Source: a virus. Taken from it: a stretch of DNA of 64,000 bases. The position numbers were made by a program, and so were the translations under genes. The stretch lies in the IMG/VR virus record IMGVR_UViG_3300032296_002111, positions 3,880 through 67,879 of that record; one strand, 5' to 3'. Within the stretch, counting starts at the first letter, position 1. Each line of letters begins with the position of its first letter. This document shows, in pieces, positions 13,671 through 58,899 of the stretch. The notes below the pieces were generated by a model that worked only from the letters and a program-made list of their open reading frames with translations, made no database searches and was not told the DNA's origin.

Positions 13671-16600
13671 ATGGCAATACAAGGCGAAGAATCAAGAAGG
13701 CAGCTATATCGTGACTTGCTTAATGACAAGTCGCTTGGATATGCCGATAAGATAAGGAAGTATTCTTTTAATAGCTTTCAGGACAAACTTCTTAATGACG
13801 ACAAAGCTCAGGCAAGGCTAACCTCTGACCTTATTGAGAAAGGAAAGGTGAAGGACGGCACAGAGTTCTACGAGAAGTACATTCTTGACGAAGTTAAGCC
13901 AGCCCCCGCCCCCAAGGCCGCCCCTGTCGCCCCAGTCCAACAGGTTGTTGAGCCGATGGCTATGGAGGAAGAGGCATACATTCCAGAACCTCAGCCTGCC
14001 GTAGGAACAACCGAATACGACAAGCAACTTCAGAAGCAATACGGAGGAATGGCTCCTACATTAGGAGCGACATTCGGAGGTGCGCCTGCCGCCTTTGAAA
14101 CGCCTGAACAGAAGAAACAGGAACAAATCAGTCCTGCTTTCAAAGCGCAGAAATTAGCCTTTGAGGAAGTTCCTATTGCCTCCGAACAACGGAGAGCGCA
14201 AAGGGAATTTGCTAAGGCCACGAAGGAACAACAGAAGGCTGCCGTAATGGGAGGGACTGGGTTTGAGTTATCTCAAAATGTTGCAGATGAAAATAGGGCT
14301 GCTGCGCAAAAACTAAAAGATTTTGGCTATTCTATTGGGGCGCTTTTTGATAATGTGATTGACAAATCAAAGGCTGCCGAGGCAATGTTTGGCGCTAAAC
14401 AAAGAAGCCTATTAACCTTTGGAGATAAACGCAAGAAAGCAGAAGAGCAGGAGAAGAGGGTAAAGCAAGGCATTGTTGATTATGTTGACCAATTAGACCA
14501 AGAGTTTGCCGCAAAGCAAGCAGACTATAACATTAATGGAAACTTATTTGACGTTATAAGTAAAGGCCAATTGGATAGAATCCCAGAAGCATTTGCCTAT
14601 AATTTAGCACAGATAGGAGTTCAGGCTCTTGCCGCATCACAAACAGGAGGGTATTCTATGTTTGCCCAAATATTCCCAGATTTGTATAAGTCGGGAGTAG
14701 AGGAAATAGCAAAGAAAACAAAAACCACTCCTGAGCAAGTAATTGCAAGCGGGAATGATAGGGAACTTCTTTCCTATCTTGGAGGCACTTTAAGCGGATA
14801 TATTGAGAATTTGTCGGGAGGAATACTTGGCAAGGCAATGAAATCAAAAGGCGCTTACAAGTTTATTCGTGACAAGGCTCTTGACAAAATAGGAAAAACA
14901 AAATGGAAGCAAGCTGCTGCTTCTGGTATTGCTCTTACAGGAACAGCAGGACTTGAAGGAGCAACAGAAGGAACGCAAGGGTTGGTTGAAATAGCTGCTC
15001 CACAAATTGCCTCAGCCGAATCATTCAAGGAGGCAAGAGAGAATATCTATGGCGAACTACAAAAGCCAAGCACACAAAAAAGACTTGCAGGCGATATTGT
15101 TGGAGGTGTTGCTGGAGGTGGTGGCATAGCTGCTGGAGGTCGTGCTTTAGATAGGATTCTTCAAGGAGATTATGGGTATGGAGATGTGCGGAAAGCTCCT
15201 GCTACGCAACGTGTCGATTATGATATTATCCAAACGGACAAAAAGCTAGAAACTCGCAAAAAAGCCATTCAGGCAATGGAAGAAGCCGTTAAGGCCAATC
15301 CAGAAGCAGAAGGGCAAATCAGGCAGCAGTTTCAAAAGCAGATTGATGCCGCTGCTCCAACGAATGAGGAAGTCATTAATGCCTACGAAAGTACGGCACA
15401 GCTTCCTGAATCGGAAGAGAAGGCCAAGATACAGCAGAATCTTGAGGCTTACATGGCCGAGAAGGGCATACGGCCCGAAGCCGTTGGGCAGGAAGCCGGA
15501 CTTGGTGAATTGATGCGTAGAGAAGCCCCCGAAGCTCCCGTTGCCGAAGAAGTGGTGGACGATAACGAATATGCCAATTTTATTGACAATGGAGTTGTTT
15601 CCGAAGAAAGGCTAAATGACATTGCCGAAAAGGTTAGGAATAGAGAACAACTTACCGAAAGAGAAACCGCAATATTCACCGATAAGGCAGGCGAAATTAA
15701 CGCAATAATTGAGAGCCAATCTACTGAAGTTGCTCCCGAAGAAACCATTCCCGTAGAGGAGGACGAAGACTTAGCGGCCCTGAACGAACAGATTGCCGCA
15801 ATAGAGAACGCTCCTGCGGAAAGAGAAATGGTTCCTGCCGCTCCTAAGGTAAGATTTGAGTTACCAAAATTGAACGTGACTCTCCCAGAAGGATTTGCCC
15901 CTGCATTGCGTAAACTTGGGTACACGGATGAAGAAATATCCGGAATGACCATTGACCAACAACAGGACATTGCTATAAACAAAACTGAACCAGCAAGGGC
16001 AGAAAGCAGTTCAAAGGTTGATGTCGCAAAGGAGAATCAAAGAGTAGAAAGGATTGCGGAGGCTCAAAAGAAGTTAGATGAGGAGATTGCTGCCGAACAA
16101 GCCGCCCCCGTTGCTGCCGAGGAGGAAATAGTCGAGGCCGTTCCTGCCCCCGCTCCGAAAAAAGGGAAAGGAGTAACGGTTGAGTTTCCAACTGAACTTT
16201 CTGTTAGCGAAGTTAAGCCTTATGCAGAAGTACCCGATAACTATTACCGCCCTGACCAGCAGTTAAAGTTCAATCAAGGCAACTACTACGAACCTGTTAG
16301 AGTGATTGCTCATCCCGATGTGATTAGGGCAATAACGATTGGAAGTAGATTAGGGGATGCTCAAAAAAGGAAAACGGTTTCTGATAGCGATATTGAGTTT
16401 GCAAATAAAATTGCCAAGCAACTTGGGTACACCAATGATGCGGGTAATGGCAATGCAATTATGCTCCATAGAGCCGCAAAAGACCTTGCAAAAGAAAATA
16501 GGAGCAAGAATGAAGAGGTCTTTATGGTGATTGGCAACGAGGCAAAAGCCCCCAAACCAACGCCCGTAACGCCCACTGCCGCTCCGAAGGCACAGCCTGT

Positions 16601-46963: not shown

Positions 46964-47329
46964 CTATCCTTTATTTAGTTTGTCGTATCGGACCTGAGTC
47001 GCTCTTTCTTTTATATTGAGTTCTGACATCAATCTTTTAACCCTACGCTCGTTTTTCGGGACACTGGATTGCCCCTTCTTTTTTTTAGACTTCCTGCCTA
47101 TTTTGGTTGTCTTGTGAATCGTAGTGTGGCAACTTTCGCATAGTGTAATAAGGGCGCTGCTTGGATATTGCCAAGGCTTCCTCCCTTCCAAATAATATTT
47201 ATGATGGCAATTAAGATGAGACTTTGAGCCGCATTTTTGACAGCAGAATAAGTCCCTCTTGTATATTGAGAGCCTTTTGTCGGCCCATTCTGGGGAGAGG
47301 AGTAGTTCTTTATATTCTTCTTTTGTCAT
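46964..47329 (-). CDS. HNH endonuclease
   Basis: MTKEEYKELLLSPEWADKR..RDLFCCQKC..LNCHHKYY..LITLCESCH; probable ATG at 47329. Confidence 0.85.
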   Translation of the reverse strand: MTKEEYKELLLSPEWADKRLSIYKRDLFCCQKCGSKSHLNCHHKYYLEGRKPWQYPSSALITLCESCHTTIHKTTKIGRKSKKKKGQSSVPKNERRVKRLMSELNIKERATQVRYDKLNKG

Positions 47330-47341
47330 AATAAATAAAGT

Positions 47342-47364
47342 AAAAAAAAGGCCCGAAGGCCCAA
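47342..47364 (-). terminator. Short intrinsic terminator
   Basis: Minus strand gggcc-ttcg-ggccc followed by T-run. Confidence 0.55.
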
Positions 47365-47372
47365 TTTTAACT

Positions 47373-47621
47373 TTAAGACGGAAGCTCCGGTAACGGCATC
47401 CAATGTGTCGTTCGCTTCGGCCATCCGAATTCACCATAAGGTATAACGCCAATATTCTCATCATCTGTAAGGACATTATGCGCTCTGCACTCTAAATGAC
47501 TTTTGTTGGTGGATGCGTTAATCCAAAGTTCAAAACTACAGCACACGATGTTTTTGCCATCTGTCACTAACATAGGCGTGTTCAATGGAGGCTTCTGGTC
47601 TTTTACTGAAATCCAATTCAT
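47373..47621 (-). CDS. DUF551-like phage protein
   Basis: MNWISVKDQKP...THWMPLPELP. Confidence 0.85.
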   Translation of the reverse strand: MNWISVKDQKPPLNTPMLVTDGKNIVCCSFELWINASTNKSHLECRAHNVLTDDENIGVIPYGEFGWPKRTTHWMPLPELPS

Positions 47622-47750
47622 ATATTTTTTTATTTATGATTTACGTATTCTTTTATTGAGGCAAAAAGGAAGGGCCGAATCAGCCCCTCTTTTCGTCAAG
47701 CTATTAACCAAATTAACACTATTTCAAAAAGCGTTTTTTGTTGTGAATGA

Positions 47751-47787
47751 TATATCACGCAATATTGCGTATATGGTGTAGTTATGT
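47751..47787 (+). repeat. attI-like site 1
   Basis: tatatcacgcaatattgcgtatatggtgtaG|TTATGT; contains 14-bp palindrome acgcaatattgcgt; recurs at 51333 and 52556. Confidence 0.75.
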
Positions 47788-47793
47788 GCCATT

Positions 47794-48033
47794 TTACAGA
47801 AACCACCTGAAATTAATGAAACATACGCTTAACCATAATCTTCTATCTTGTGGCTGCCAAAACACACCGAATAAACTTCTATCTATTTCGCAATTATCAA
47901 ACGTAAGCACAGCAAATCCAATGCTCATATATTTGTTCAGCCACAAGTCAAACAAGTGAATTTGATAATCAAAACGGCACATAACACAGTATTTGCGTAA
48001 TGCCTTTCGTAATTCTAATAATCTTTTCTGCAT
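47794..48033 (-). CDS. Cassette 1 hypothetical protein (start in attC loop)
   Basis: N-terminal ALRKYCVMCR is encoded by the attC arm. Confidence 0.6.
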   Translation of the reverse strand: MQKRLLELRKALRKYCVMCRFDYQIHLFDLWLNKYMSIGFAVLTFDNCEIDRSLFGVFWQPQDRRLWLSVCFINFRWFL

Positions 48034-48100
48034 ATTTTTAAATTTTGTATTTCAATTAAAATTCTGTATTGGCACTACGCAAATACTCGGCACGTTAGCA
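47979..48100 (+). repeat. attC-like site 1
   Basis: acatAAC..agtatttgcgtaatgcc / ggcactacgcaaatact..GTTagca (16/17 paired); ggcacataac complements gttatgtgcc at 47781. Confidence 0.85.
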
Positions 48101-48109
48101 ACAATGCCA

Positions 48110-48349
48110 CTAACCTTGTATCTTATATTCAGTTGGTATTATGTGCATAGGTATTATCATTGCCCCACCGCACAAATTACACGTTTCTACTCCACTACTT
48201 ATTGAAGTAGGCGAGCCGTACCAATTTTGAACTAATACCTTACCATCGCCACCGCACTTTGGGCATAATTGATAAGGCACAGTTGCTAACACAGTATAAC
48301 CGCAATTGGCGGGTTTCTGCGTTTTTGAAACTTTTGTTTTCTTTTCCAT
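48110..48349 (-). CDS. Cassette 2 DnaJ-type zinc-finger protein
   Basis: CPKCGGDG...CNLCGG; start in attC loop. Confidence 0.65.
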   Translation of the reverse strand: MEKKTKVSKTQKPANCGYTVLATVPYQLCPKCGGDGKVLVQNWYGSPTSISSGVETCNLCGGAMIIPMHIIPTEYKIQG

Positions 48350-48417
48350 TTTTATCTGTATTTTGAAAGTTATTACTACTTAATCCGCCAACTGACGGTT
48401 ATACTCGACCGTTAGCG
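48284..48417 (+). repeat. attC-like site 2
   Basis: tgctAAC..agtataaccg..ttggcgg / ccgccaa..cggttatact..GTTagcg; gttgctaac complements gttagcaac at 48094. Confidence 0.9.
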
Positions 48418-48639
48418 GTAATTGATTGTACGGTGTTTAATCTGTTCAATACCTTTAAAGTTCCGCTTTGCTTCTGCAACAAGTTCATTCATTGTACAGC
48501 CACCTTCTCTTTTTCGTAGTTCCTCAATCATCCAAATAAGCGGAACTAAATCTCCGTTGTTGTCTTGTGGTGATTCACAACTACCGCTAACATCGGTTTT
48601 GCAAAAAAGCCGCTTTAGTGCTAATTTTAATCTTTTCAT
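48412..48639 (-). CDS. Cassette 3 hypothetical protein
   Basis: TAA stop lies in core G|TTA; start in attC loop. Confidence 0.6.
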   Translation of the reverse strand: MKRLKLALKRLFCKTDVSGSCESPQDNNGDLVPLIWMIEELRKREGGCTMNELVAEAKRNFKGIEQIKHRTINYR

Positions 48640-48717
48640 CTCTATTGTATTTTTAGTTGTTAATTAAACTTTTGTTTTTCAAATACGGCTTCATCGCAAA
48701 GCCATTTTCCGTTAGTG
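48585..48717 (+). repeat. attC-like site 3
   Basis: cgctAAC..ggttttgc..aagccg / cggctt..gcaaagcc..GTTagtg; caactaccgctaac complements gttagcggtaattg at 48411 (13/14). Confidence 0.85.
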
Positions 48718-48723
48718 GCAAGC

Positions 48724-49167
48724 TTAACAAACGTTAGCGATAAACTGACCACTTTCTAATTCTATATGTTTACAACCTTTTTGATTTTTCAATTCATCAA
48801 GCCATAAATCCCAATTATTTGAAATAAGATTTATAAAAGCATCAGTAGAACCTCTTTCTTTATATCGTTTCAAATATTCTTCTTTCAATTCTTTTTTTGG
48901 ATAAACTAACGTAAATTCTAATCCATTTTCTACTAAAGCGTCTCTAACCTCTTTATGGCTTGAAATGAAAATTCTTGAATAACCTTCTGATATTTTTTCT
49001 TTGATATGCTCAATATAGTTTTGTGGAAAATTAGCCTTATCAAATTTACTACTATCGCTATCGGTTGCAAATCCTTGTGGCATATAATCAGCATCTCTGT
49101 AGCAATAAGATGTTTTACCAGTTCCAGGAAAGCCAGCCACTAACATCGGTTTGGCAAAATCTGCCAT
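48724..49167 (-). CDS. Cassette 4 P-loop kinase-like protein
   Basis: AGFPGTGKT Walker A, DSDSSKF, FPQNYIEHIK; probable ATG at 49167 in attC loop (ORF track extends to 49245). Confidence 0.75.
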   Translation of the reverse strand: MADFAKPMLVAGFPGTGKTSYCYRDADYMPQGFATDSDSSKFDKANFPQNYIEHIKEKISEGYSRIFISSHKEVRDALVENGLEFTLVYPKKELKEEYLKRYKERGSTDAFINLISNNWDLWLDELKNQKGCKHIELESGQFIANVC

Positions 49168-49231
49168 TGAAATTTGTGCGAAAATTGAACTTTCCGTTAG
49201 GCAGCCTTCGCCAACCTGCAAAACGTTAGAA
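49138..49231 (+). repeat. attC-like site 4
   Basis: cactAAC..ggtttggc..ctgcc / ggcag..gccaacc..GTTagaa; gccactaac complements gttagtggc at 48711. Confidence 0.85.
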
Positions 49232-49237
49232 ACAACA

Positions 49238-49507
49238 TCACCCATTCACCCACTCCCAAACAAGGTCGTCCTCCTTTCCTTTCTCTATCTTCCCTTTCTT
49301 CTCCGTCACTACCCACTGACAGAAGGCAACGAGCTGTTCGCACCGTAGGCTCGTGTTGAATATCTGATTCTTCACAACGCCACAGAGGGCCTTCTGGTCT
49401 TCCATTGTTAGCCTGATGTCGCCCATGCCCACATGAGCGTCAGAGTTTCGTAGGGATTGGAACGCCTTCTCAAGGGTGGCTAAGTTCCTCACTGTTGGTC
49501 TTCTCAT
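49238..49507 (-). CDS. Hypothetical protein
   Basis: Backbone early gene; ATGA coupling. Confidence 0.55.
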   Translation of the reverse strand: MRRPTVRNLATLEKAFQSLRNSDAHVGMGDIRLTMEDQKALCGVVKNQIFNTSLRCEQLVAFCQWVVTEKKGKIEKGKEDDLVWEWVNG

Positions 49508-49944
49508 ATTTTGTCTTCTATCTTATACTTCTCAATAACGTCCAACGGAACGAAAAGCTGCTTCTCAAATCCCTGGTCCTTGAAGTGGAGATATTGTCCT
49601 TGCTCCAGAACGACAGATTTCGGAAATTTATACGTGCCAACGTCATCCCGAAGTTCAATGTTGTCAAATAGCTTTCCCTCTCGTATCATGTATTCGTTAA
49701 AGCCATATGAATTGTTCTTCCGCATCAAGTGGCTCTCTCGTGTCCGTATCAATTCCAACGTGCGTTCCTTCAAGTCTACACGGCCTACATCCCGCCCGAA
49801 GTTCTCCGAGGCCAAGCGTAGCTGAATGTATAAATGGGAAGGGGTGCGGAACACATGGAACGCATCGCCCTCCTTGTTGAACACAGAGCCATCAGCCTTC
49901 TTTAGGCTACTTGGCTTCTTGTGTTGCGTTAGTGTCTTCTTCAT
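49504..49944 (-). CDS. Hypothetical protein
   Basis: Probable start MKKTLTQ at 49944; HLMRKNNSYGFN..GFEKQLF. Confidence 0.6.
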   Translation of the reverse strand: MKKTLTQHKKPSSLKKADGSVFNKEGDAFHVFRTPSHLYIQLRLASENFGRDVGRVDLKERTLELIRTRESHLMRKNNSYGFNEYMIREGKLFDNIELRDDVGTYKFPKSVVLEQGQYLHFKDQGFEKQLFVPLDVIEKYKIEDKI

Positions 49945-50236
49945 TTGTTTCGAAATTGTTGATGTGGTGGACGAACCGTTCTCTTTCCTTGGCATCAAGG
50001 TCGTAAATCTTCCACACGAGGCCAACAATAGCAGAATTGATGTCGTCCTCCGCCTGTGCTACTTCTTTACCGAGGCCCTTGTGTAAATAGCGCTCAAACT
50101 CCTCAGCGTGGTGCATGAGGCGATTGAAGTGCATCTTTGCTTCATTGTGGAGAACCTTGTCTCCGTTCTTTATCACCCATCCGGATTCGATTACGCCTCG
50201 GACGAAGCAGGTGAACTTGCTGAAATCGTTTTTCAT
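49907..50236 (-). CDS. Hypothetical protein
   Basis: Preceded by TATATTTG box (50245-50252, minus strand). Confidence 0.6.
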   Translation of the reverse strand: MKNDFSKFTCFVRGVIESGWVIKNGDKVLHNEAKMHFNRLMHHAEEFERYLHKGLGKEVAQAEDDINSAIVGLVWKIYDLDAKERERFVHHINNFETNEEDTNATQEAK

Positions 50237-50348
50237 AACAGGGGCAAATATATAATTATTTCACAATGCAAGAAAAATAAATAAAAAAAGGGATGATTAT
50301 AAACCACCCCCTTTCGATTTTACACCAAGTTCAAACCGAATAAAACTT

Positions 50349-50507
50349 TTATTTCTTCTTAGCCGTCTTGGCCGCAGCCTTGAACGCAGCAGCCGTAGGC
50401 GCTCCCTTCGTTCCGGGCTTTCTCATTTTCTCTCCACTTCCAGCAGCAATGCGCTTCCTTTTGGCATGGATGGCATCGTACAATCCTGGGTCTCCTGGCT
50501 TTTTCAT
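50349..50507 (-). CDS. 52-aa basic protein
   Basis: Hand-translated [32 protein letters not shown]...AAKTAKKK*. Confidence 0.65.
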
Positions 50508-50674
50508 TTCTTCTTCATTGTTTGTTTAGCCATAGGCTTGGCCGCTGGCTTGTTTGACTTTCCTGCTTTGTTGAGGGCGATTGCTACACTTTGCTTCATT
50601 GGAACCTTCTCCTTTCGCATTGTCTTAATATTCTCGCCTATCACCTTTTGCGAACTTCCAGATTTTAATGGCAT
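50504..50674 (-). CDS. 56-aa basic protein
   Basis: Hand-translated [36 protein letters not shown]..; ATGA overlap. Confidence 0.65.
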
Positions 50675-50713
50675 AACTTTAAAAGTTTAAAATGTTTGCG
50701 TAAATATAAACAA

Positions 50714-51094
50714 TTAGCCCCAAACCAAATCCTTTAGATTGGGGGGGCGATACCCTTCGGGTTTCATCACTTTGCCGTCCTCCCGAAGCAGGGGCTTCCC
50801 ATCAACGAGCTTGCTCATGTTACTTGCGTGTACCTCTGCGAATATCGCAGGCAGCTTGTGGGCAATCCCGAACTCCTGTGCCGTTCCGAACAGAATGTAC
50901 AGGCAGTCTGCTATGCCATCAGCCACTTCCACGAGGTCGCCCTTTATAGAAGCCTTCAGAAGCTCCGTTACTTCCTCTTGGAGTAATGTATGCCTGAACG
51001 TAGAACGTGACGCTGAGAGCGTTTTTGGTGCGTCATGCACGGGATGCCCGAAGGCGTTGTGGAAGTCCTCCACCATTTTGATTTCCTTTTCCAT
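50714..51094 (-). CDS. MazG/PRA-PH-like NTP pyrophosphohydrolase
   Basis: VEDFHNAF, LLQEEVTEL, EVADGIADCLY, EVHASNMSK, REDGKVMKP. Confidence 0.85.
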   Translation of the reverse strand: MEKEIKMVEDFHNAFGHPVHDAPKTLSASRSTFRHTLLQEEVTELLKASIKGDLVEVADGIADCLYILFGTAQEFGIAHKLPAIFAEVHASNMSKLVDGKPLLREDGKVMKPEGYRPPNLKDLVWG

Positions 51095-51095
51095 A

Positions 51096-51302
51096 TTATG
51101 CCAAAGATAAGTTGTGTTCTTCTAATTTCTCAATAAGCCATGTACGGACATAATCCGTATCAAACTCCTTGTCATCCCATCCCTTGTCATGGGTTCGGAG
51201 CATGGATTGGAGTTCAAAAATGATGTGCTTGTACTTCCATCCGTTGAGGGCATCCATATATGCCTCCTCATCATCAGGCGTGAATTTAAGTATCACTTCC
51301 AT
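51096..51302 (-). CDS. Hypothetical protein
   Basis: ORF track; operon packing. Confidence 0.6.
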   Translation of the reverse strand: MEVILKFTPDDEEAYMDALNGWKYKHIIFELQSMLRTHDKGWDDKEFDTDYVRTWLIEKLEEHNLSLA

Positions 51303-51332
51303 AATTATATGAGGACAAACTGTCCCAAGGTA

Positions 51333-51368
51333 ATATGATGCAATATTGCGTATATGGTGTAGTTAGCT
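51333..51368 (+). repeat. attI-like site 2
   Basis: 26 bp gcaatattgcgtatatggtgtagtta (51340-51365) identical to 47759-47784. Confidence 0.75.
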
Positions 51369-51575
51369 GCCATTGTTTGACAACTTACTCAATACCCATT
51401 TAGCACCTTTTTCAAATGCTAATATCTTATCAATGTTTTTACGCTGCTCATTTAAGTCTTTACCTTTGTAGGCATTTACTGCGGCAGTTTCAATATCCAT
51501 ATTAGATACAACGGCATCTAACAAGCGGTTAGCGTCATTGCCGTTTTCGTGGTTAATTAAAGTTTTATTTTCCAT
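51363..51575 (-). CDS. Cassette 5 hypothetical protein
   Basis: MENKTLINHENGNDANRLLDAV..AFEKGAKW; ATG at 51575 in attC loop; stop in G|TTA. Confidence 0.6.
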   Translation of the reverse strand: MENKTLINHENGNDANRLLDAVVSNMDIETAAVNAYKGKDLNEQRKNIDKILAFEKGAKWVLSKLSNNGS

Positions 51576-51649
51576 ATCAAATTTTGTTTTTAAGTTAAAG
51601 TTTTGTGTTCCAAAGTCGGCAACGAACGCCAACCGCCATACCGTTATAA
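51516..51649 (+). repeat. attC-like site 5
   Basis: atctAAC..gcggttagcgtcattgccg / cggcaacgaacgccaaccgc..GTTataa; acaacggcatctaac vs gttagctgccattgt at 51362 (13/15). Confidence 0.85.
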
Positions 51650-51991
51650 GCAATATTTTTCACGCATTACCCTCCTAATTACATCATCCTTGTTTATTAA
51701 CTGTAACCCCTTCAATGATGAACTTATTGGCTTCATCACTTTGTCTGCTGTATATATTGATGAAATTGGATTAGAAATTTTCCCACATCTACATTTTTCA
51801 ATCCTATAATCAACATATAATCTATCACATTCGGTATATCTTTCTGCATCTAAAAAAATTTCTTTAGATGGTTGTTCATAATATAAGCCAATAAGTTTCC
51901 ACCTGTGAATGTGAAAAAAACGGCTTATAACAAGGCATATATTCAATGCCGAGTTTCGTAGTTTAATCAACTTTTGTTCTTCGTTTTTCAT
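51644..51991 (-). CDS. Cassette 6 hypothetical protein (His/Cys motifs)
   Basis: HIHRWK...KCRCGK; start in attC loop; stop in G|TTA. Confidence 0.6.
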   Translation of the reverse strand: MKNEEQKLIKLRNSALNICLVISRFFHIHRWKLIGLYYEQPSKEIFLDAERYTECDRLYVDYRIEKCRCGKISNPISSIYTADKVMKPISSSLKGLQLINKDDVIRRVMREKYCL

Positions 51992-52057
51992 TTTATCTGT
52001 TTATTAATTTTTGTGTTTCAAATTCCGCACCTGACCACAATCCAAGTGCCGTTATGC
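51925..52057 (+). repeat. attC-like site 6 (degenerate arms)
   Basis: gcttataac complements gttataagc at 51643; ends ccGTTatgc; arm pairing poor. Confidence 0.65.
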
Positions 52058-52276
52058 ACCATAAGTCTTCTCATAATACTCCACACTCCTATCAAACCCT
52101 CTGAACGCAAGGTTCATGGCAATGTAGGCTGCATCGTGAGCCTCAATTATATGGTCTCGCTCCATTTCAAGTGCTTGTTGGAATAGTCCTTCAAACTGAA
52201 CCTTCTGCTCATGGGTTAGGTGAAGTCTTAATGCCTCTTGTAGCCAGATGACTGCCGTTTGGTTTTTATTCTCCAT
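52052..52276 (-). CDS. Hypothetical protein, KQTAVxWL family
   Basis: MENKNQTAVIWL..QQALEMERDHI..YYEKTYGA; probable ATG at 52276. Confidence 0.65.
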   Translation of the reverse strand: MENKNQTAVIWLQEALRLHLTHEQKVQFEGLFQQALEMERDHIIEAHDAAYIAMNLAFRGFDRSVEYYEKTYGA

Positions 52277-52511
52277 AGGTTTTCTGGAAATAAGTGTCAA
52301 AGTCATCCGGGATTCTATCATCAGCCGGAGGCATATAGCCTTGTTCAATCATCCTGATGTAGTGGCATCGTTTGAATCCTTCTATGTAGGCTGCCTTTAG
52401 TTGCTCCTGGTACATTTCCTTGGCCTTATTGTAGGCATTCCAGAAACTTGCTGGATAGGACTCCGCATGAAGGCTATTCATGAAGAAGTCAATTGCGCTA
52501 TTCTGTTTCAT
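52266..52511 (-). CDS. Hypothetical protein, paralog of the adjacent gene
   Basis: MKQNSAI..KAKEMYQEQL..YFQKTYGE. Confidence 0.65.
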   Translation of the reverse strand: MKQNSAIDFFMNSLHAESYPASFWNAYNKAKEMYQEQLKAAYIEGFKRCHYIRMIEQGYMPPADDRIPDDFDTYFQKTYGE

Positions 52512-52555
52512 ATTTCTACGGATATTATTCTGATTTGCCGTTGATTAGTGCGTTA

Positions 52556-52592
52556 TATATCACGCAATATTGCGTAAATATGGTAGTTATAA
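52556..52592 (+). repeat. attI-like site 3
   Basis: tatatcacgcaatattgcgtaaatatggtaG|TTATAA; first 21 bp identical to site 1 with the same 30-nt distance to G|TT. Confidence 0.75.
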
Positions 52593-52598
52593 GCCATT

Positions 52599-52907
52599 TT
52601 ATGAAAACGATAACTCATCTTCGCAAATAGTTTGAATCATTGCAATTCTCATACCTGAACGTAAACCAAATTTCTCATCGTTGCAATCGACATCTTTAAT
52701 TTTAGCATAAACTTGTTTCCAAAATTCTATGTCTTTTTTCATTTCGTCAATAATCAAATCAACCAAATTGCAAAACATATCCCACGCTTGACCATCAAAT
52801 AAATCAAGGTTGTCTAAAACGAATTTTTGAAACTCATTTTTTGCTTCTTCGGAATTATATCTTTGATTTCCGAGTTGTATCATTTTTACTTTGTTATGCC
52901 ATTCCAT
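52599..52907 (-). CDS. Cassette 7 hypothetical protein
   Basis: AT-rich 102-aa ORF; start outside attC. Confidence 0.6.
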   Translation of the reverse strand: MEWHNKVKMIQLGNQRYNSEEAKNEFQKFVLDNLDLFDGQAWDMFCNLVDLIIDEMKKDIEFWKQVYAKIKDVDCNDEKFGLRSGMRIAMIQTICEDELSFS

Positions 52908-52954
52908 TTTTTTTTATAAATTAAATTGTTAAGCCAAACATGAATAAAAACAGC

Positions 52955-53050
52955 TTATAACAGTAGTTTGGCAAAATACCGCCACAAGCCTTTGTACTAA
53001 ATTTAAACATTCTGCAAGGCGGTACTTCGCCAAGCCACAAACCGTTAGAA
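52955..53050 (+). repeat. attC-like site 7
   Basis: ttatAAC..tttggcaaaataccgcc / ggcggtacttcgccaag..GTTagaa; aaaacagcttataac vs gttataagccatttt at 52586 (13/15). Confidence 0.85.
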
Positions 53051-53057
53051 AACATTG

Positions 53058-53261
53058 TTAATTAACCTCACCTATATCATATAGTTCCAAATGTGGAAAG
53101 TGTTTTTCAAAGTAAGGTTCTACTTCATCAACATCTTTTACCCATACAATAATCTTTCCTTCGTTTCCACTTTTGTTTTCAGTGAAATATACCTCAAAAC
53201 AACGTTTTCTAACAAAGTATAAACGTAATGTTTTCAGTTTTTCAATCAATCCTTTTATCAT
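53058..53261 (-). CDS. Cassette 8 hypothetical protein
   Basis: N-terminal TLRLYFVRKR is encoded by the attC arm. Confidence 0.6.
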   Translation of the reverse strand: MIKGLIEKLKTLRLYFVRKRCFEVYFTENKSGNEGKIIVWVKDVDEVEPYFEKHFPHLELYDIGEVN

Positions 53262-53326
53262 AATTTCAAGTTTTGTGTTTCAATTTAAGTTCAGTTAAAC
53301 ACTACGTTTATACTCAACCGTTATGC
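53207..53326 (+). repeat. attC-like site 8
   Basis: ttctAAC..agtataaacgtaatgttt / aaacactacgtttatact..GTTatgc (17/18); aacaacgttttctaac vs gttagaaaacattgtt at 53044 (15/16). Confidence 0.9.
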
Positions 53327-53641
53327 ATTCTTACCATTAATTAATGCATCCAGATTGCGAATGGAATCCTGCAAGTCTCTCCTTGCATCTTTAAGCACCT
53401 CCTCACGTTCCTCTCGTTCCTCAATCAGCATCTCAGCAAGGTCGCTAATGATGGCTGACAAGTCCGACCAATGGTCAAAGGTTGTAAGTTCGGACACAAG
53501 GTCTTCATTCTCTTTTAGGTCAATTCCTGGCATCATGGCCTTGAGAATCTCATCCCTTTCCTCCTCATACTTTTCGCTATTGGGCAGGATGATGAGGTCT
53601 CCACTTGCCCACTTCTCTAATTGTTCCTTAGTGTATTTCAT
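53321..53641 (-). CDS. Hypothetical acidic coiled-coil protein
   Basis: Backbone gene; stop coincides with the array-3 right core site. Confidence 0.6.
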   Translation of the reverse strand: MKYTKEQLEKWASGDLIILPNSEKYEEERDEILKAMMPGIDLKENEDLVSELTTFDHWSDLSAIISDLAEMLIEEREEREEVLKDARRDLQDSIRNLDALINGKNA

Positions 53642-53904
53642 AACTTCTCAATTTCTTGTTTTACTTCTTCCCAATAACTAATTAAAGCATCTACACCTAA
53701 CGCAATTGGTAATTTAATAATCTCATCTACTGCAATTAATGCACAGGCTTTTGCCAAGCCATTTCTATCCTTAAATTTGTTATAGCAATCATTATTCCAT
53801 TCACAATCTAATGGCATACCCATTTGATTGTAGAAAATCCTTAACAACTCTTCTGCTTTTTCTTCAGGATTCATAACTTCTCTATTGCTCTGTTTAAATA
53901 CCAC
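53638..53904 (-). CDS. Hypothetical protein (probable start MNPEEKA)
   Basis: AKACALIAVDEII..YWEEVKQEIEKL pattern. Confidence 0.65.
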   Translation of the reverse strand: MVFKQSNREVMNPEEKAEELLRIFYNQMGMPLDCEWNNDCYNKFKDRNGLAKACALIAVDEIIKLPIALGVDALISYWEEVKQEIEKL

Positions 53905-54155
53905 ACGGCCTTCTCAAGGTCTTGCTTCATTGCTCCCTTCTTGCCTGCCCGAAGGATGTACTTCAAAGCGTTACCGAGGCAGAAGTCTTTTCCCCATCCC
54001 TGAGCCTCAATTATCTTGATGGCCTCGTAAGCGTTGTCCTCTCCCCCATAATGTTCGGGGTGATTAACCATTTCGGAAGGCTTGCTCTTCCTCACCCATT
54101 CTCCTTCCCTTCCTCTGTCGTGAATGATGTTGTCGTTGTTAATAATCGAACCCAT
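53871..54155 (-). CDS. DUF3310 (SaV-like) protein
   Basis: MVNHPEHYG, FCLGNALKYILRAGKK, DLEKAVWYL. Confidence 0.85.
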   Translation of the reverse strand: MGSIINNDNIIHDRGREGEWVRKSKPSEMVNHPEHYGGEDNAYEAIKIIEAQGWGKDFCLGNALKYILRAGKKGAMKQDLEKAVWYLNRAIEKL

Positions 54156-54399
54156 AATCGTTACAAAATATTGGTGTTTGTTCTCCCATGTACGCTCCTA
54201 ATACGTTGTAGTCAAAGTATTCAATCGCCTCCTCCATTGTCATCTCGCTGTCCTTAACTAATATCTCAAGGCACTTTGTTGTGCTGTAAATAAGCCTGCC
54301 AGACATTTCGTCTATGCCTATAACGGCCTCATCAAATCCATCGGCCTTTAGGAAGGTGTCGTCCGGATTGTTCTCAAGTATTATTTCGAGGATGTTCAT
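54139..54399 (-). CDS. Conserved phage hypothetical protein
   Basis: LKADGFDEAVIG..EEAIEYFDYNVLGAYMGEQTPIF. Confidence 0.7.
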   Translation of the reverse strand: MNILEIILENNPDDTFLKADGFDEAVIGIDEMSGRLIYSTTKCLEILVKDSEMTMEEAIEYFDYNVLGAYMGEQTPIFCNDYGFDY

Positions 54400-54881
54400 T
54401 TTATTTGCAGGCTAACATTGTCCTTCAAGAACGCTCCCGGAACTTCCTCTCCGGCCTTCAGAGCATTACCAATAGCCGTCTTGCTTGCCTCCTTCTTAAC
54501 GACAAAGAAAGATTCGGGAAGTTCCGCCTCGTCCACTATTTCCACAGCCTGTGAACGCCTTGTGGACAACTTCATCAGGGGCGTTTCCCATTTCCCATTC
54601 TGTCCGTACAGCATAAGGGCATGGAGAAGCGTTTCCTTCAAGCGAGCAACGGAGTTCTCCTTTGTCTTCTTGATGGCCTGAATGCGCTTGATTTCAGAGG
54701 CAGCAGCTTCGATTTCTGATTCCCATTTGAGAATCAACTTTGCGTACCCATCGGCCTTGTGGCTGAAGTTCTCACGATTGATGGCAAGTTCCTCCATCAG
54801 CTCGTCTGTGGCCTCACCCCCTGCCTCCTCAATAATGGAGGCGAGGGCAAGGAACTCTTGTGTGATTTCCCAGAGTGTCAT
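54396..54881 (-). CDS. Siphovirus Gp157-like protein
   Basis: MTLWEI, EIKRIQAIKK, RRSQAVEI, KTAIGNALKAGEEVPGA. Confidence 0.85.
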   Translation of the reverse strand: MTLWEITQEFLALASIIEEAGGEATDELMEELAINRENFSHKADGYAKLILKWESEIEAAASEIKRIQAIKKTKENSVARLKETLLHALMLYGQNGKWETPLMKLSTRRSQAVEIVDEAELPESFFVVKKEASKTAIGNALKAGEEVPGAFLKDNVSLQIK

Positions 54882-54898
54882 TGTTTATATTTGTTTAG

Positions 54899-54995
54899 CA
54901 GTCGGGGCGAGAGTCGAACTCGCATTGCGCATGAAACATCTGAATGTGTAATACATTCATAGTTTCACGGTGCATTACCTTTATGCTACCCGACT
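54899..54995 (-). tRNA. tRNA-like RNA with elongated anticodon arm (no assignable isotype)
   Basis: Acceptor AGTCGGG/CCCGACT, D-arm GCAT-AAAGGTA-ATGC, T-arm GCGAG-TTCGACT-CTCGC; anticodon arm replaced by a long hairpin. Confidence 0.7.
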
Positions 54996-55048
54996 ATGTT
55001 CCGGTCTTTCCCGGATGTCATTTATTTTATATTTTAACTTATTGAATA

Positions 55049-55708
55049 TTAGAAGGGCAATAAGTCCGCTTCATTATCACCATCTAACGACATCGGGGAA
55101 ATGGCAGGAGCTGGAGCAGCCTTTGGTTTCGACATCATGGCCTTGTACTCATCAGAACCTTTTATCTTCTCCTGAAGGAACGCGGGCATTGATTCAAACT
55201 TAGCTTGGTCGAACTCATCAAGGCTGAACTCAAATGTAGGATTGATTTGCGGAGGGCAAGCCATTCCTTTCATCACAGGCGTAGCACTTGCGATTTCATC
55301 AAACACTTTAGAGGGGTCTTTACGTCCCTGCTTGTGAATGATGTTAAGCAAGCAAGGAACACCAAGCAACTTGGTTACGTCAAAGGCAGCAGCCTCCTCG
55401 TCTGTAAATGCTTTGCCTCTCCATCCCGTCAGGAATGCCCGAAGGTTGGCCTTCTCATTCATGGATAGCGTGAACTCCTTGCTGATTACACAAGGCTGCT
55501 CTCCCTTCTCCTGACTGAATACCTTCAGCTCTGTCGGGAGTTCAAATGTGATGCGTACCTTGTGAACCACTTTTTTCTGCCCCAGTATCTCCTCTTCACG
55601 AGTTCCGAGGTCAATCATCGAATAACAACGGGCTACATAAGTGCCTGCTGGGATGGGAGTGTAAGCGACACCATCGCCTCCACCCACGTTTTTAGCTATT
55701 ATTGCCAT
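55049..55708 (-). CDS. Putative single-stranded DNA-binding/replication protein
   Basis: PIPAGTYVARCYSMIDLGT, FTLSMNEKANLR, FDVTKLLGVPC, acidic tail ending DLLPF; TACATTTG box at 55752-55759. Confidence 0.6.
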   Translation of the reverse strand: MAIIAKNVGGGDGVAYTPIPAGTYVARCYSMIDLGTREEEILGQKKVVHKVRITFELPTELKVFSQEKGEQPCVISKEFTLSMNEKANLRAFLTGWRGKAFTDEEAAAFDVTKLLGVPCLLNIIHKQGRKDPSKVFDEIASATPVMKGMACPPQINPTFEFSLDEFDQAKFESMPAFLQEKIKGSDEYKAMMSKPKAAPAPAISPMSLDGDNEADLLPF

Positions 55709-56049
55709 AATCGTGTGAATAAATTGTTTAATTGTTTTGCTTTAGTGGGAGCAAATGTATATTCCCTTATTGAATATTCCAAATCTCCCTATAAAATATT
55801 GATACATAAATAGTTCTGTTGCGTTGCTGATGCTGACAATCACACGAAAAATGGCACGTGTTTGAAAGCATATTTCCAACTTTTCCGTTCATTTCAGAAT
55901 TGTCAAACGAACAAAAACGTAAATTCCGAAGGCCAAAAACACCCCTAAATTGTCAAAAAAGGCTTTTTCGTTTCTTGACCGGAAGGAGCGGAAGGCATTC
56001 ACGCCTGTCGTAAGCATGACGGCAGAGGTGAAAAGCAGGGCTGTCGTTG

Positions 56050-56232
56050 TCATTGCTGTCCGAATATTTGCATAGCAAGGAATAACATTGCTATGAATGA
56101 AAGGAACAAATAAGTGTAGCCGAGGCGAACATTGTCCACATTGTCCGGCCTGCTGAAGTTAACGTGGCTGCGCCAGATGCAGAAGAACATGGCGAGTACG
56201 TTCGAGACGAATAGTAGGATTTCTGTAATCAT
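56050..56232 (-). CDS. Small two-TM protein
   Basis: Two hydrophobic helices. Confidence 0.45.
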   Translation of the reverse strand: MITEILLFVSNVLAMFFCIWRSHVNFSRPDNVDNVRLGYTYLFLSFIAMLFLAMQIFGQQ

Positions 56233-56247
56233 TGGTAAATATAATTA

Positions 56248-56613
56248 TTATTCTTCTCCGTACTTATTGTTAAGCATATACTTGATGTGTTCACGCTCAT
56301 AGAAATGATTCTCTATTTGCCGTGCCTTCTCCATTGGCCTCTTCTCATCCTTCCCCTCCCATCTGTAATAGGAATCAAGCGTGGGGAAGGCTGCGTATGT
56401 ATGCCCGAAGGCGAGCATCCAAAACACTTCCAGTCCTTCGTTTGTGGAGTCATATCCACCATCAATGATAAGACCCATCCAATCGCTTTGTAACTCTCTA
56501 CAAGTGTCGAAGAACTGTTCTGCCGTAGGCAGGCCATCGGAAGGCTCAGGGGCGTCGTATAACGAGGGAATTTCACCCTCGTAGTATAGCGTCATTGTTT
56601 CTCTAAATGTCAT
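56248..56613 (-). CDS. Hypothetical protein
   Basis: ATGA-coupled early gene. Confidence 0.55.
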   Translation of the reverse strand: MTFRETMTLYYEGEIPSLYDAPEPSDGLPTAEQFFDTCRELQSDWMGLIIDGGYDSTNEGLEVFWMLAFGHTYAAFPTLDSYYRWEGKDEKRPMEKARQIENHFYEREHIKYMLNNKYGEE

Positions 56614-56810
56614 GTCCGTGATGCTCTAATGTATTCAAATGATTTGTTCAATAACTCTTTCGCCTCCTCCTTGCCAGAGCCTGGAAGGCGTTCATTGAGG
56701 GCGTACATATTCTGCACTCCTTCTATTCCCTGAAAAGGCAGGGAGCGTTCCTGACAGGCTTCCCGAAGCCGTGCCATGCGTGTTTCCAGTTTGCGTAAAT
56801 GAGGTGTCAT
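56610..56810 (-). CDS. Hypothetical protein
   Basis: ATGA-coupled. Confidence 0.5.
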   Translation of the reverse strand: MTPHLRKLETRMARLREACQERSLPFQGIEGVQNMYALNERLPGSGKEEAKELLNKSFEYIRASRT

Positions 56811-57103
56811 GATTGTACAGAGAAAACGAGTTCAGGTTTGTTTTTGGCGAAGTGGAATTTCACTCCTTGAAATTGTACGAGAACAACGTCTATAAATTCG
56901 CTCTCCCAAATTCTTACAGGCGTTTCGTGCCATAGCCCCATCACCTTATAGTTCCAGTTGTCGTACTTGACAATGATGCTGACATATTCTCGTCCATACT
57001 CGTCGGCAGGATGGTGCTTAAAGTCGTAGAATGTTGCGCCTAACAAATCGTTCATGTAGGCTGCTGTTTCCTCTAAGGAGGAAGGAAGTTTATGCTTGCT
57101 CAT
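56807..57103 (-). CDS. Hypothetical protein
   Basis: ATGA-coupled. Confidence 0.55.
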   Translation of the reverse strand: MSKHKLPSSLEETAAYMNDLLGATFYDFKHHPADEYGREYVSIIVKYDNWNYKVMGLWHETPVRIWESEFIDVVLVQFQGVKFHFAKNKPELVFSVQS

Positions 57104-57242
57104 AGTGTTGCTTGATTAGTTGTTGAATTTTCTTTTTGAGAATCGTTTTGTCTGATGTCCGTACACGGAATGACATTACGGACGTGGTGAAGGGAAGGGG
57201 TTTCCTCCCACGTTTGTTAGGCTTTGGCAGTATTGGCTTCAT
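57090..57242 (-). CDS. Small DNA-binding protein candidate (AT-hook/RHH-like)
   Basis: MKPILPKPNKRGRKPLP..VMSFRVR..; probable internal start of ORF 57090-57347. Confidence 0.5.
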   Translation of the reverse strand: MKPILPKPNKRGRKPLPFTTSVMSFRVRTSDKTILKKKIQQLIKQHYEQA

Positions 57243-57432
57243 GTGTTTCTTTATTGATTTGATTATGTGCTTTCCATGCCCATTCGAGTGAGCGTCCGAT
57301 GTAGTCCTCAGGGCTGTCATCACGAATGACAATTCCTGGTTCTTCAATCAGCAAATGAGCTGCCGTGAGGAGTTGTAGTGCCTTGTCAAGCAATTCCTTT
57401 GCTTGCGTAGCGTCTGAAGGTGTGTAATACAT
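57217..57432 (-). CDS. Hypothetical protein
   Basis: A-rich upstream; ORF track. Confidence 0.5.
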   Translation of the reverse strand: MYYTPSDATQAKELLDKALQLLTAAHLLIEEPGIVIRDDSPEDYIGRSLEWAWKAHNQINKETHEANTAKA

Positions 57433-57481
57433 ATTTGTTTGTGTTTAATTGTTTATGCAAGATTTGTGAAATAAATTGACA

Positions 57482-57784
57482 TTACCAAATTCTGTTTTCA
57501 AAATTGTGAAGAAATTTCTCAGGCGTTAAGAGTTGTTCCGGCCTTTCGTTCATACGTTCCCAATAGAGACGTTCTGTGAGGCCTACAGAAGCCCTGAGAA
57601 CGCTCCATATTCCGTCGCCTGTGTTTAGTTCGGCATGGAGGAAAAGCACGCTCAGGAGGCGTTCTTCTTTGTCGTTACGTATGTCCTCTGGTAGGTCATT
57701 CCAAAGCATTTCAGCTATTGGACTTGGGGAGAGTTCCGCCACCCATTCGATGGCGGATAGGCGGATGAATGTAGTGCGTTTCAT
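57482..57784 (-). CDS. Hypothetical protein
   Basis: ORF track; operon packing. Confidence 0.55.
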   Translation of the reverse strand: MKRTTFIRLSAIEWVAELSPSPIAEMLWNDLPEDIRNDKEERLLSVLFLHAELNTGDGIWSVLRASVGLTERLYWERMNERPEQLLTPEKFLHNFENRIW

Positions 57785-57789
57785 GTTCG

Positions 57790-58074
57790 TTATTGTTTAG
57801 GAGTTAGGTAAACTGACACTGTATTGTAAACCATGTGGTCTGCATGGTAATTTAAGGCAATGGAGGCAAGCGTTAGTAGTCCTTCGTTTTCCATTCCGTC
57901 AATAGCTTCCTGGATTTCCTCAATCCCGCAATATTTGCGGAAGTGTTCTGCCGAAAGGTTGATTTCTTGCTTGTCCTTTTCCGTTATTGTTTCGGGATGG
58001 CAGTAGTCTATTTGAACGGAATAGTTCTTTATGTCTTTCACAATGGAAAGGACATTTTTTGCTGTTGTTTTCAT
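57790..58074 (-). CDS. Hypothetical protein
   Basis: A-rich upstream; ORF track. Confidence 0.55.
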   Translation of the reverse strand: MKTTAKNVLSIVKDIKNYSVQIDYCHPETITEKDKQEINLSAEHFRKYCGIEEIQEAIDGMENEGLLTLASIALNYHADHMVYNTVSVYLTPKQ

Positions 58075-58096
58075 TTTGCTGTTTTGTTTTCAGTTA

Positions 58097-58324
58097 TTAA
58101 ATATTTTCCCATCCTTCGAGGGCTTCCAAGGGCGTACCAATTGGCCGCAATCCGTAGGGTTCTGCATCAAGGTAGTAATCGAATGTAAAGCCTGCTGATT
58201 CCGTTTCTGTAAGCATTTCTGCCAGTTCTGAATAACTAAGGCCGTTTGCTAATTCGTAGCGGTTGAATATAGCCTGTAATGCTTCAGGCCATGTTTCAAA
58301 AGGTGTTTCGAATAAGTCTTTCAT
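58097..58324 (-). CDS. Hypothetical protein (probable start MKDLFETP)
   Basis: GFTFDYYLDAEPYGLRP. Confidence 0.6.
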   Translation of the reverse strand: MKDLFETPFETWPEALQAIFNRYELANGLSYSELAEMLTETESAGFTFDYYLDAEPYGLRPIGTPLEALEGWENI

Positions 58325-58427
58325 GTTGCGTTCTGTTCGGCTTACTTCACCCGTTCCCGTGTTTAATTGTTTGGAGGCCGGAGGAAGTTGCGAACCTCCC
58401 AAAGTGCATATTTCCGGCCTAGTGGAA

Positions 58428-58709
58428 TTAGTAGCTTAACGCTTCCTCAGCATCAAAGTATGTTTCATGAAATGTTTCTTCGCCGTCCTCAAAGTTTGTA
58501 GTAATGTACGTTACAGGACGTCCAAAGCAAGAAGCAATACAGATGCCGTTTTCAAGTTCTATACATACGTAGCCTGTTTGGTTATTGTAGCCAATGTGGG
58601 CTATTTCTTCGCCTCTCATACTTGCGCTATTATTGTACGCTTGCAGGCAAAGGGTGAAAGAGTGAAGGTCTGACGTTCCCAACGTGTTGATAAATTGTGC
58701 TGTGTTCAT
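58428..58709 (-). CDS. Hypothetical protein, first gene of the leftward early block
   Basis: TACATTTG box at 58740-58747 (minus strand). Confidence 0.6.
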   Translation of the reverse strand: MNTAQFINTLGTSDLHSFTLCLQAYNNSASMRGEEIAHIGYNNQTGYVCIELENGICIASCFGRPVTYITTNFEDGEETFHETYFDAEEALSY

Positions 58710-58899
58710 GTTTGTAAATGTTTAATTGTTTTGTTGGGACAAATGTAAGGGAATGGAATTAATGTAAACAAATTAATTTTTTCTAATTTGGCAAAAAGGG
58801 GCGTAACACTACGAAAAAGGCAGAAAAAAAGTTTACACTTTCGAAAGGTGCGTAAGGGAAAAGGAGTCAAATACCTGAAACGTTCTTTCGTGCGCATAG

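Follow-up and report, generated by a model that had tools for sequence, protein, structure and literature searches.

Integron-like gene-cassette arrays without a recombinase gene in a phage genome, and their probable link to a family of Xer-type phage cassette systems

Can a phage hold its small genes in mobile cassettes as integrons do, and which enzyme would move them? The question is raised by 64,000 nucleotides of viral DNA (the window), bases 3880-67879 of the IMG/VR record IMGVR_UViG_3300032296_002111, in which three arrays of small units lie within a block of leftward genes. Integrons are the textbook example of gene capture by hairpin recombination, and this capture is thought to depend on a domain that is unique to the integrase IntI. 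A reading of the letters alone (the sequence-only reading) had proposed integron-type mobile cassettes in this block, moved by an IntI-type reaction. Our analysis supports the mobile cassettes and points to a different type of enzyme. We think it likely that the arrays are recombinase-less members of an integron-like gene-cassette system of phages, probably with Bacteroidota hosts.

The arrays are delimited by GTT sites at 47781, 48094, 48411, 48711 and 49225 (array 1), at 51362, 51643 and 52051 (array 2), and at 52586, 53044 and 53320 (array 3), with GTTA at every boundary. These sites reproduce exactly the earlier count of eight units and their sizes of 313, 317, 300 and 514 bp, 281 and 408 bp, and 458 and 276 bp. 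The units are indeed AT-richer than the backbone, with a GC content of 28.6-39.1% against 44.5% in the remaining window, and all eight hold one open reading frame (ORF), as had been reported, of 67-147 aa on the minus strand. At the right end of each unit stands a TAAC...GTTA hairpin, 88-128 nt long from TAAC to GTTA, and in seven of the eight the ATG lies within this hairpin, cassette 3.1 being the exception. The hairpins are all on the plus strand, and all eight ORFs point towards a conserved attI-like site at the left end of their array, which we call the head. The arrays are placed just downstream of backbone genes and comprise four, two and two cassettes per head site; the right boundary of arrays 2 and 3 is the TAA stop codon of a backbone gene. 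In the following list, bit scores and E values come from the covariance model R1 described below, and complementarity is that between the left and right ends of the same unit.

47759..47784, plus strand: attI-like head of array 1, ending ...ATATGGTGTAG|TTA
47782..48094, minus strand: cassette 1.1, 313 bp; ORF 47794-48033 (79 aa), no Pfam or PHROG family matched; hairpin 47982-48097 (65 bits, E 1.4e-10); complementarity 15 nt
48095..48411, minus strand: cassette 1.2, 317 bp; ORF 48110-48349 (79 aa), CxxC zinc-ribbon-like, with weak Pfam zinc-ribbon matches below cut-off; hairpin 48287-48414 (78 bits, part of the model seed); complementarity 9 nt
48412..48711, minus strand: cassette 1.3, 300 bp; ORF 48412-48639 (75 aa), its stop codon in the GTTA core; hairpin 48588-48714; complementarity 14 nt
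48712..49225, minus strand: cassette 1.4, 514 bp; ORF 48724-49167 (147 aa, P-loop), phrog_4182 (E 1e-55); hairpin 49141-49228 (41 bits, E 7e-6)
51340..51365, plus strand: attI-like head of array 2; its 19-mer is an exact copy of that of array 1
51363..51643, minus strand: cassette 2.1, 281 bp; ORF 51363-51575 (70 aa); hairpin 51519-51646 (105 bits, in the seed); complementarity 10 nt with 1 mismatch
51644..52051, minus strand: cassette 2.2, 408 bp; ORF 51644-51991 (115 aa); hairpin 51928-52054, weak stem (49.5 bits, E 1.6e-7); complementarity 9 nt; the right GTTA of the array is the TAA stop of backbone ORF 52052-52321
52564..52589, plus strand: attI-like head of array 3, variant ending ...AAATATGGTAG|TTA; 19-mer with 3 mismatches
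52587..53044, minus strand: cassette 3.1, 458 bp; ORF 52599-52907 (102 aa); short hairpin 52958-53047 (50 bits, E 1e-7); complementarity 9 nt
53045..53320, minus strand: cassette 3.2, 276 bp; ORF 53058-53261 (67 aa); hairpin 53210-53323 (58 bits, E 4e-9); complementarity 16 nt; the right GTTA of the array is the TAA stop of backbone ORF 53321-53641

Cassette 1.4 is the only one with a family, and the automatic Atlas name of phrog_4182, 'nucleotide kinase family', is a lead only.

Do the unit ends resemble those of integron cassettes? The left GTTA end of each unit is complementary to its own right TAAC end over 9-16 nt with at most one mismatch (5-10 nt perfect), so that cassette ends are complementary across the G|TT junction in all eight units, as the sequence-only reading had described. 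Its further statement that a hairpin matches the neighbouring site at GTTA only was slightly too strict, as this match extends over 4-8 nt (4-6 perfect), but the contrast between own and neighbouring ends stands in all eight units. Under DNA energy parameters, the form expected at a circle junction, i.e. the hairpin plus its own left end, is more stable than the array form in seven of the eight units. The exception is unit 2.2, whose hairpin folds weakly. The minus strand of the hairpins always folds better than the plus strand. The spacers measure about 2 nt on the TAAC side and about 5 nt on the GTTA side; the fit to canonical attC geometry that had been suggested is conjectural.

Are the eight hairpins members of a family? 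An end-stem detector (TAAC-stem...stem-GTTA) recovers seven of them, with three weak false hits in the 64 kb. Two other detectors were dropped, one relying on GTTA/TAAC pairs alone, which gave 49 chains in shuffled DNA, and one on the folding energy of the whole hairpin, which gave many false hits in GC-rich genes. In control loci around MazG-like homologues (80 loci with at most 57% identity, 804 kb of phage DNA) the end-stem detector found six hairpins compared with four in shuffles and no arrays. From the window and 34 fetched loci it gathered 91 different hairpins. The covariance model R1 was built from 51 hairpins of the long class, three from the window and 48 from other phages, which align with an invariant TAAC and CGTTA and share the core GTTA-NNNN-C. 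Compensatory changes are present at all 16 predicted pairs of this alignment. Paired cells make up 87.4% against 52.8% in shuffles, although the percentage is inflated by selection because the detector requires a stem. That selection does not account for how varied the pair types are at set distances from the cores; the covariation score of 0.768, compared with 0.184, was reached by none of 500 shuffles and falls to 0.09-0.19 when the partners are slid. What has been conserved is the structure more than the sequence.

Run unfiltered on the whole 67.9-kb genome, R1 finds exactly the eight hairpins, all on the plus strand, with 41-105 bits (E 7e-6 to 2e-18), the five outside its seed scoring 41-65 bits and the next-best match in the genome 15.8 bits (E 0.64). 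All eight are thus TAAC...CGTTA hairpins of fixed polarity to their ORF. R1 has no match in the 80 control loci, and an Rfam search of the window returned no family at gathering score. In the alignment, named A1, the column pairs 11/137 and 20/127 are conserved stem positions without Watson-Crick pairing, with T.G in 28 of 51 hairpins and an A opposite C that is nearly invariant. Read on the complementary strand, each of the two turns into a mispair of the other kind, so these positions could serve strand choice, in analogy to the extrahelical bases of attC sites.

The family reaches beyond this genome. R1 has eight matches in the 462-kb uncultured phage LR756500.1, where one hairpin is 93% identical to that of unit 3.2 over 117 nt (84% in an initial search). 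This counterpart sits in a long row of like units, some of which share their GTTA ends with units of the window. The matches in LR756500.1 lie at 400608-403917 (plus strand) and 409367-410124 (minus strand), about 5 kb apart; being on both strands, they indicate at least two arrays in opposite orientation.

A second conserved element is the head, which in the window consists of a 14-bp palindrome, a 6-nt spacer and TAG|TTA. Its 19-mer occurs three times in the window, a count reached by none of 100 shuffles, and was found in no other IMG/VR contig. In other viral contigs, heads adjoin a recombinase gene, and we refer to this combination as a platform. There the head, 52-56 nt before the start codon of the recombinase gene, ends ...CATATAGTAG|TTA, which resembles the end of the array 1 head, and the array 3 head is identical to the platform consensus ATATAGTAGTTA at 11 of 12 bases. 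Window and platform heads have the ATAT..TAG|TTA end in common; the remainder of the 31-bp window site, including the palindrome, is not common to the platform heads. All three window heads end in ...ATA(N)TAG|TTA and stand at the promoter-distal end of their array, as do those of the family. A head motif ending TAG|TT(A/G) is present in 15 of the 19 recombinase loci scanned (L116 and L120 were left out), and the other four show visible variants of it. From G|TT to the first base of the recombinase start codon the distance is 55-59 nt in 14 loci and 71 nt in one.

Which enzyme belongs to these sites? As the sequence-only reading had stated for the window, no integrase is present; the tyrosine recombinase family PF00589 has no match there or in the whole 67,879-bp record. 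Serine recombinases (PF00239) and Y1 transposases (PF01797) were also not found in the genome. LR756500.1 likewise has no PF00589 gene, and in both genomes the heads or arrays are without the Xer-type gene that directly follows the head in platforms. The enzyme was found through cassette 1.4: among five contigs that contain this cassette, one (G001, 45.8 kb) encodes a tyrosine recombinase of 267 aa, with its start codon about 52 bp from an array head of the ...CATATAGTAG|TTA type. Its best models are XerA-type (181.9 bits), XerC (164.6 bits) and XerD (158.2 bits). The integron-integrase model TIGR02249 gives 139.6 bits in two stretches, below the cut-off of 265, and in an alignment to IntI4 (2a3v) the enzyme has 35 residues where IntI4 has 83. 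These roughly 48 fewer residues imply that the IntI-specific insert is missing from the Xer-type enzyme, and the label 'IntI-type' therefore does not fit it.

The association of this recombinase with the hairpins holds across its homologues. We examined 21 IMG/VR loci with 30-100% identity, one of them being the query's own contig. The detector finds hairpins in 16 of the 21 and R1 alone adds two matches in L108; in the remaining four the flank on that side is at most 368 nt. Every hairpin that the detector finds is upstream of the start of the recombinase gene and has the same polarity, and the cassette genes are co-directional with the recombinase. R1 itself has 59 matches in 13 of 20 recombinase loci, and with default filters it misses the hairpins that the detector found in L104, L106 and L121. 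The recombinase contigs range from 5 to 362 kb, which is a poor fit to a plain lysogeny integrase. Among named phages, Freya_1 and Freya_10 of Polaribacter have integrases that are 34% identical to the Xer-type enzyme. Upstream of the Freya_10 integrase the detector finds no such hairpins, and its one weak match (-10.4) spans the integrase start. Annotation of the Freya phages places an HNH gene immediately behind the integrase.

Is there evidence that the units have moved? Twenty IMG/VR loci with homologues of the cassette 1.4 P-loop protein were fetched, and 11 other viral contigs (12 loci) contain the cassette itself with a DNA identity of 83-99%. The homology starts at the GTTA boundary (48708-48711) in ten of these contigs and at 48695 in one, and ends within the hairpin at 49148-49168. 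Bounded by hairpins and with differing cassettes to its left and right, it is present in six array contexts elsewhere (seven loci, L090 and L091 being alike), and in L089 and in L086/L087 it stands directly behind a head-like site. In L083/L084 the cassette has 98% DNA identity, while the few backbone proteins in common with the window do not exceed 41% identity, a discrepancy which points to recent transfer. The matched stretches L083:7998-8454 and L086:1807-2244 are at 98-99% DNA identity. In L086/L087 the homology stops 4 nt past TAAC, so the TAAC side may also be a breakpoint. The more distant homologues (35-49%) are in eight loci, none with hairpins, and for the seven other window cassettes no protein homologue was found in the fetched loci, the only ones compared.

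Public sequencing runs that contain parts of the stretch, labelled as wastewater, freshwater or lake metagenomes, add further breaks. Their data are assembled contigs, and array parts left uncovered in runs X2, X4, X5 and X7 are not evidence of absence. In contigs of four runs, homology breaks at 48409/48411, 48711, 51362, 51646/51647 and 52586. At 48409/48411 cassette 1.3 directly follows variants of the attI-like head in the contigs of two runs, and the segment from 48711 to 49148 is represented by a contig at depth 2692 with five differences. Other contigs begin matching exactly at 51362 and, in run X7, at 52586. The hairpin of cassette 2.1 alone (51518-51648) is matched in other runs, with continuations after 51646/51647 that differ between two runs, and matches confined to a hairpin, at about 90% identity, turn up in many contexts.

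Entire arrays can be missing as well. A contig of run X2, which belongs to the study that probably yielded the window, joins 47742 to 49244 with four other letters in between, so that array 1 is absent, and a contig of run X5, from a different study, joins 52548 to 53345 without array 3. The bridging contigs come from relatives in which arrays 1 and 3 are missing together with their heads. The comparison with related phage DNA that the sequence-only reading had called for thus shows both cassette variation at GTTA and whole-array absence. Left of the array 3 head there is one further feature:

52525..52554, minus strand: orphan, recoded copy of the tail of the gene to the right of array 3 (NALINGKSE*)

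How might these parts work together? In the model that we propose, a cassette is one small gene plus a TAAC...GTTA hairpin that, in seven of the eight units, also carries the start codon and upstream region. In a circular cassette the two ends (GTTA-NNNN-C and its complement) would pair and lengthen the hairpin, which may fold from a single strand. Strand exchange by a Xer-type tyrosine recombinase would then take place inside the GTTA common to both sites, at G|TT in analogy to integrons. Exchange between two hairpins would lead to excision and shuffling, and exchange between a hairpin and a head (TAG|TTA) to insertion. As there is no recombinase gene here, any movement would need an enzyme in trans, which might come, for example, from a co-infecting phage or a prophage with a platform; otherwise the arrays would currently be static. 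A Xer-type enzyme that acts on a hairpin formed from one DNA strand is known from CTX phage and XerCD, in likeness to the proposed reaction. In that system the whole phage genome is integrated at dif and no cassette arrays are built, which sets it apart from the present family.

Several observations weigh against this model, in addition to the selection for stems mentioned above. Since PF00589 is absent from both this genome and LR756500.1, activity in trans has to be assumed. It may also be that the recombinase is an integrase for lysogeny and that its attP adjoins accessory genes by chance. A search of 185,579 species genomes, one per prokaryote species, yielded two weak homologues with identities of 42% and 29%, the carriers being a metagenome-assembled genome of Chitinophagaceae and a Pedobacter, and no arrays; this search was pattern-based and reaches close relatives only, so it says nothing about hosts. 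The TAAC side of cassette 1.4 is without a hairpin in L086/L087 and has a truncated one in L083/L084, which means that cassette and hairpin do not always travel together, and suggests that cassettes can become fixed and sites can decay. The heads missing from array-less relatives and the recoded gene tail indicate that whole arrays came by a route outside the model. Finally, recombination itself was not observed, and in data consisting of contigs, circle junctions or excision reads could not appear.

How close, then, are the arrays to integrons? As far as features visible in the sequence go, they appear integron-like throughout. Like integrons and clusters of attC sites without an integrase (CALINs), they are rows of one-gene cassettes that each end in an imperfect AAC...GTT hairpin, with complementary ends across the junction and with the same cassette in different arrays. 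In full platforms a distinct head site adjoins a tyrosine recombinase gene, and recombinase-less arrays exist in both cases. The closest integron kinds are sedentary chromosomal integrons with homogeneous attC sites, and CALINs. However, the phage family has a Xer-type recombinase of 267 aa without the IntI-specific insert, and its cassette genes stand in inverse orientation to the site, run in the direction of the recombinase gene and have their own start region inside the hairpin. Integron cassettes are promoterless, oriented away from attI and transcribed from a promoter of the platform, whereas all eight ORFs here read towards the head. The phage sites have the core GTTA-NNNN-C and spacers of 2 and 5 nt, and their carriers are phage genomes, this one with three separate heads and no recombinase. 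Having no IntI, inverted cassette genes and expression signals inside the site, the arrays are on three counts not an integron proper.

Could the hairpins instead be regulatory stem-loops such as the PeSL cassettes of T4-type phages, shuffled by homologous recombination, with the neighbouring recombinase being an unrelated lysogeny integrase? We judge this unlikely. A PeSL joins a conserved sigma-70 early promoter to a terminator stem-loop. There are likenesses: PeSLs separate small accessory genes by stem-loops with expression signals, and are described as bringing about the shuffling of modules and the formation of mini-circles in hyperplastic regions of phage genomes (PMC2839356, PMC4122927). 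In our hairpins the loops contain start codons and the AT-rich stretches upstream of them, hairpins alone are matched at about 90% identity in many contexts, and some copies of cassette 1.4 have a truncated hairpin or lack it. Exchange of PeSLs is described as homologous recombination between conserved repeats. Such exchange would neither fix the breakpoints at one GTTA nor leave cassette-specific complementary ends in all eight units, and homology alone is hard to reconcile with breakpoints fixed at GTTA. Moreover, the stems co-vary at fixed distances to the invariant TAAC and CGTTA, and in contigs of 5 to 362 kb the arrays are found on one side of the recombinase only, behind a head at a fixed distance; this linked recombinase with its head site is a difference from the PeSLs as described.

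It also seems quite unlikely that the arrays are a fragment of a canonical integron, i.e. a true attC cluster whose cassettes are moved by an IntI that the host encodes. The GTT/AAC cores, the own-end complementarity and the arrangement in arrays are integron hallmarks. Qi et al. 2023 (PMC9892861) describe integrase-less attC-type clusters in virulent phages. They report 17 phage CALINs, found with IntegronFinder/HattCI, and IntI1 recombined five of the six phage attC sites tested, including one from Polaribacter phage P12002L, whose CALIN contains methyltransferase genes. We find one hairpin of the present type in this phage (NC_028924.1 38879-38936), directly after the DNA methyltransferase gp54, and do not equate it with the sites of Qi et al. 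The word 'Xer' is absent from the main text of that paper, and its main-text passages describe no phage-specific head site or cognate phage recombinase. Against a canonical integron speak the array-linked enzyme, which by the TIGR02249 score and the missing residues is not IntI, the inversion of all eight ORFs relative to the integron convention, the threefold head site distant from any integrase gene, and the core and spacers. Very improbable is a third alternative, that endonuclease-driven homing moves the cassettes, for example through the HNH endonuclease 270 bp left of array 1 (ORF 46964-47476, minus strand, matching HNH endonuclease PHROGs at E 2e-16): the recoded copy of the target gene's tail at array 3 recalls homing elements and the Freya phages have an HNH gene beside the integrase, but HNH genes are common in phages, none is consistently linked to arrays in the examined loci, and homing leaves hairpins, own-end complementarity and ordered arrays unexplained.

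The preferred reading remains that of an integron-like phage cassette system with a Xer-type enzyme. The sequence-only reading knew of no such arrays as a described part of crAss-like phage biology; for this phage the crAss-like affiliation is itself conjectural. Clusters of attC sites in lytic phages are in print (PMC9892861), and only the Xer-type cassette-array family appears to be undescribed; the literature search, which did not extend to subscription journals, gave no description of such arrays in phages. A wider proposal, for which we see the balance as even, is that Bacteroidota phages run their own integron-type system. Its small Xer-type recombinase, although without the helix to which the action of IntI on folded single strands is attributed, would insert hairpin-bounded, self-expressing cassettes at TAG|TTA heads and excise them. 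It would also work in trans, and recombinase-less phages such as this one with its three heads would draw on a cassette pool shared across unrelated backbones of 35 kb to 462 kb.

The genome around the arrays is organised in two directions. The record has 123-bp direct terminal repeats, and rightward genes up to window position 46961 encode a primase-helicase, ThyX, terminase, portal and four giant virion proteins. All three arrays are inside the block of small leftward genes at 46964-58897. The nearest named relatives of the terminase are from Flavobacterium and Cellulophaga phages (26% identity). One protein of the virion block (13671-18623, plus strand, 1650 aa) matches two PHROGs with replication or resolvase names, DNA polymerase processivity factor and RusA-like resolvase (E 4e-12 and 8e-14), at its C-terminal residues of about 1344-1555, an odd module for a giant structural protein. 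A tRNA-like RNA had been suggested at 54899-54995, but ARAGORN finds no tRNA or tmRNA across the window and the Rfam search gives no support either.

What would such a system mean for these phages? Given the role ascribed to the IntI domain, the use of a plain Xer-type enzyme would, if confirmed, show whether hairpin-cassette recombination arose repeatedly or predates IntI. It would provide a mechanism by which small early and accessory phage genes, the likely home of anti-defence functions, turn over rapidly, and would explain the presence of one gene at 98% identity in phages that share few backbone proteins, none of them more than 41% identical. If confirmed, the recombinase and its sites would also be a new structure-specific recombination tool. 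To this picture the present window adds a genome with three separate heads and no recombinase gene, together with direct evidence that entire arrays are absent from close relatives.

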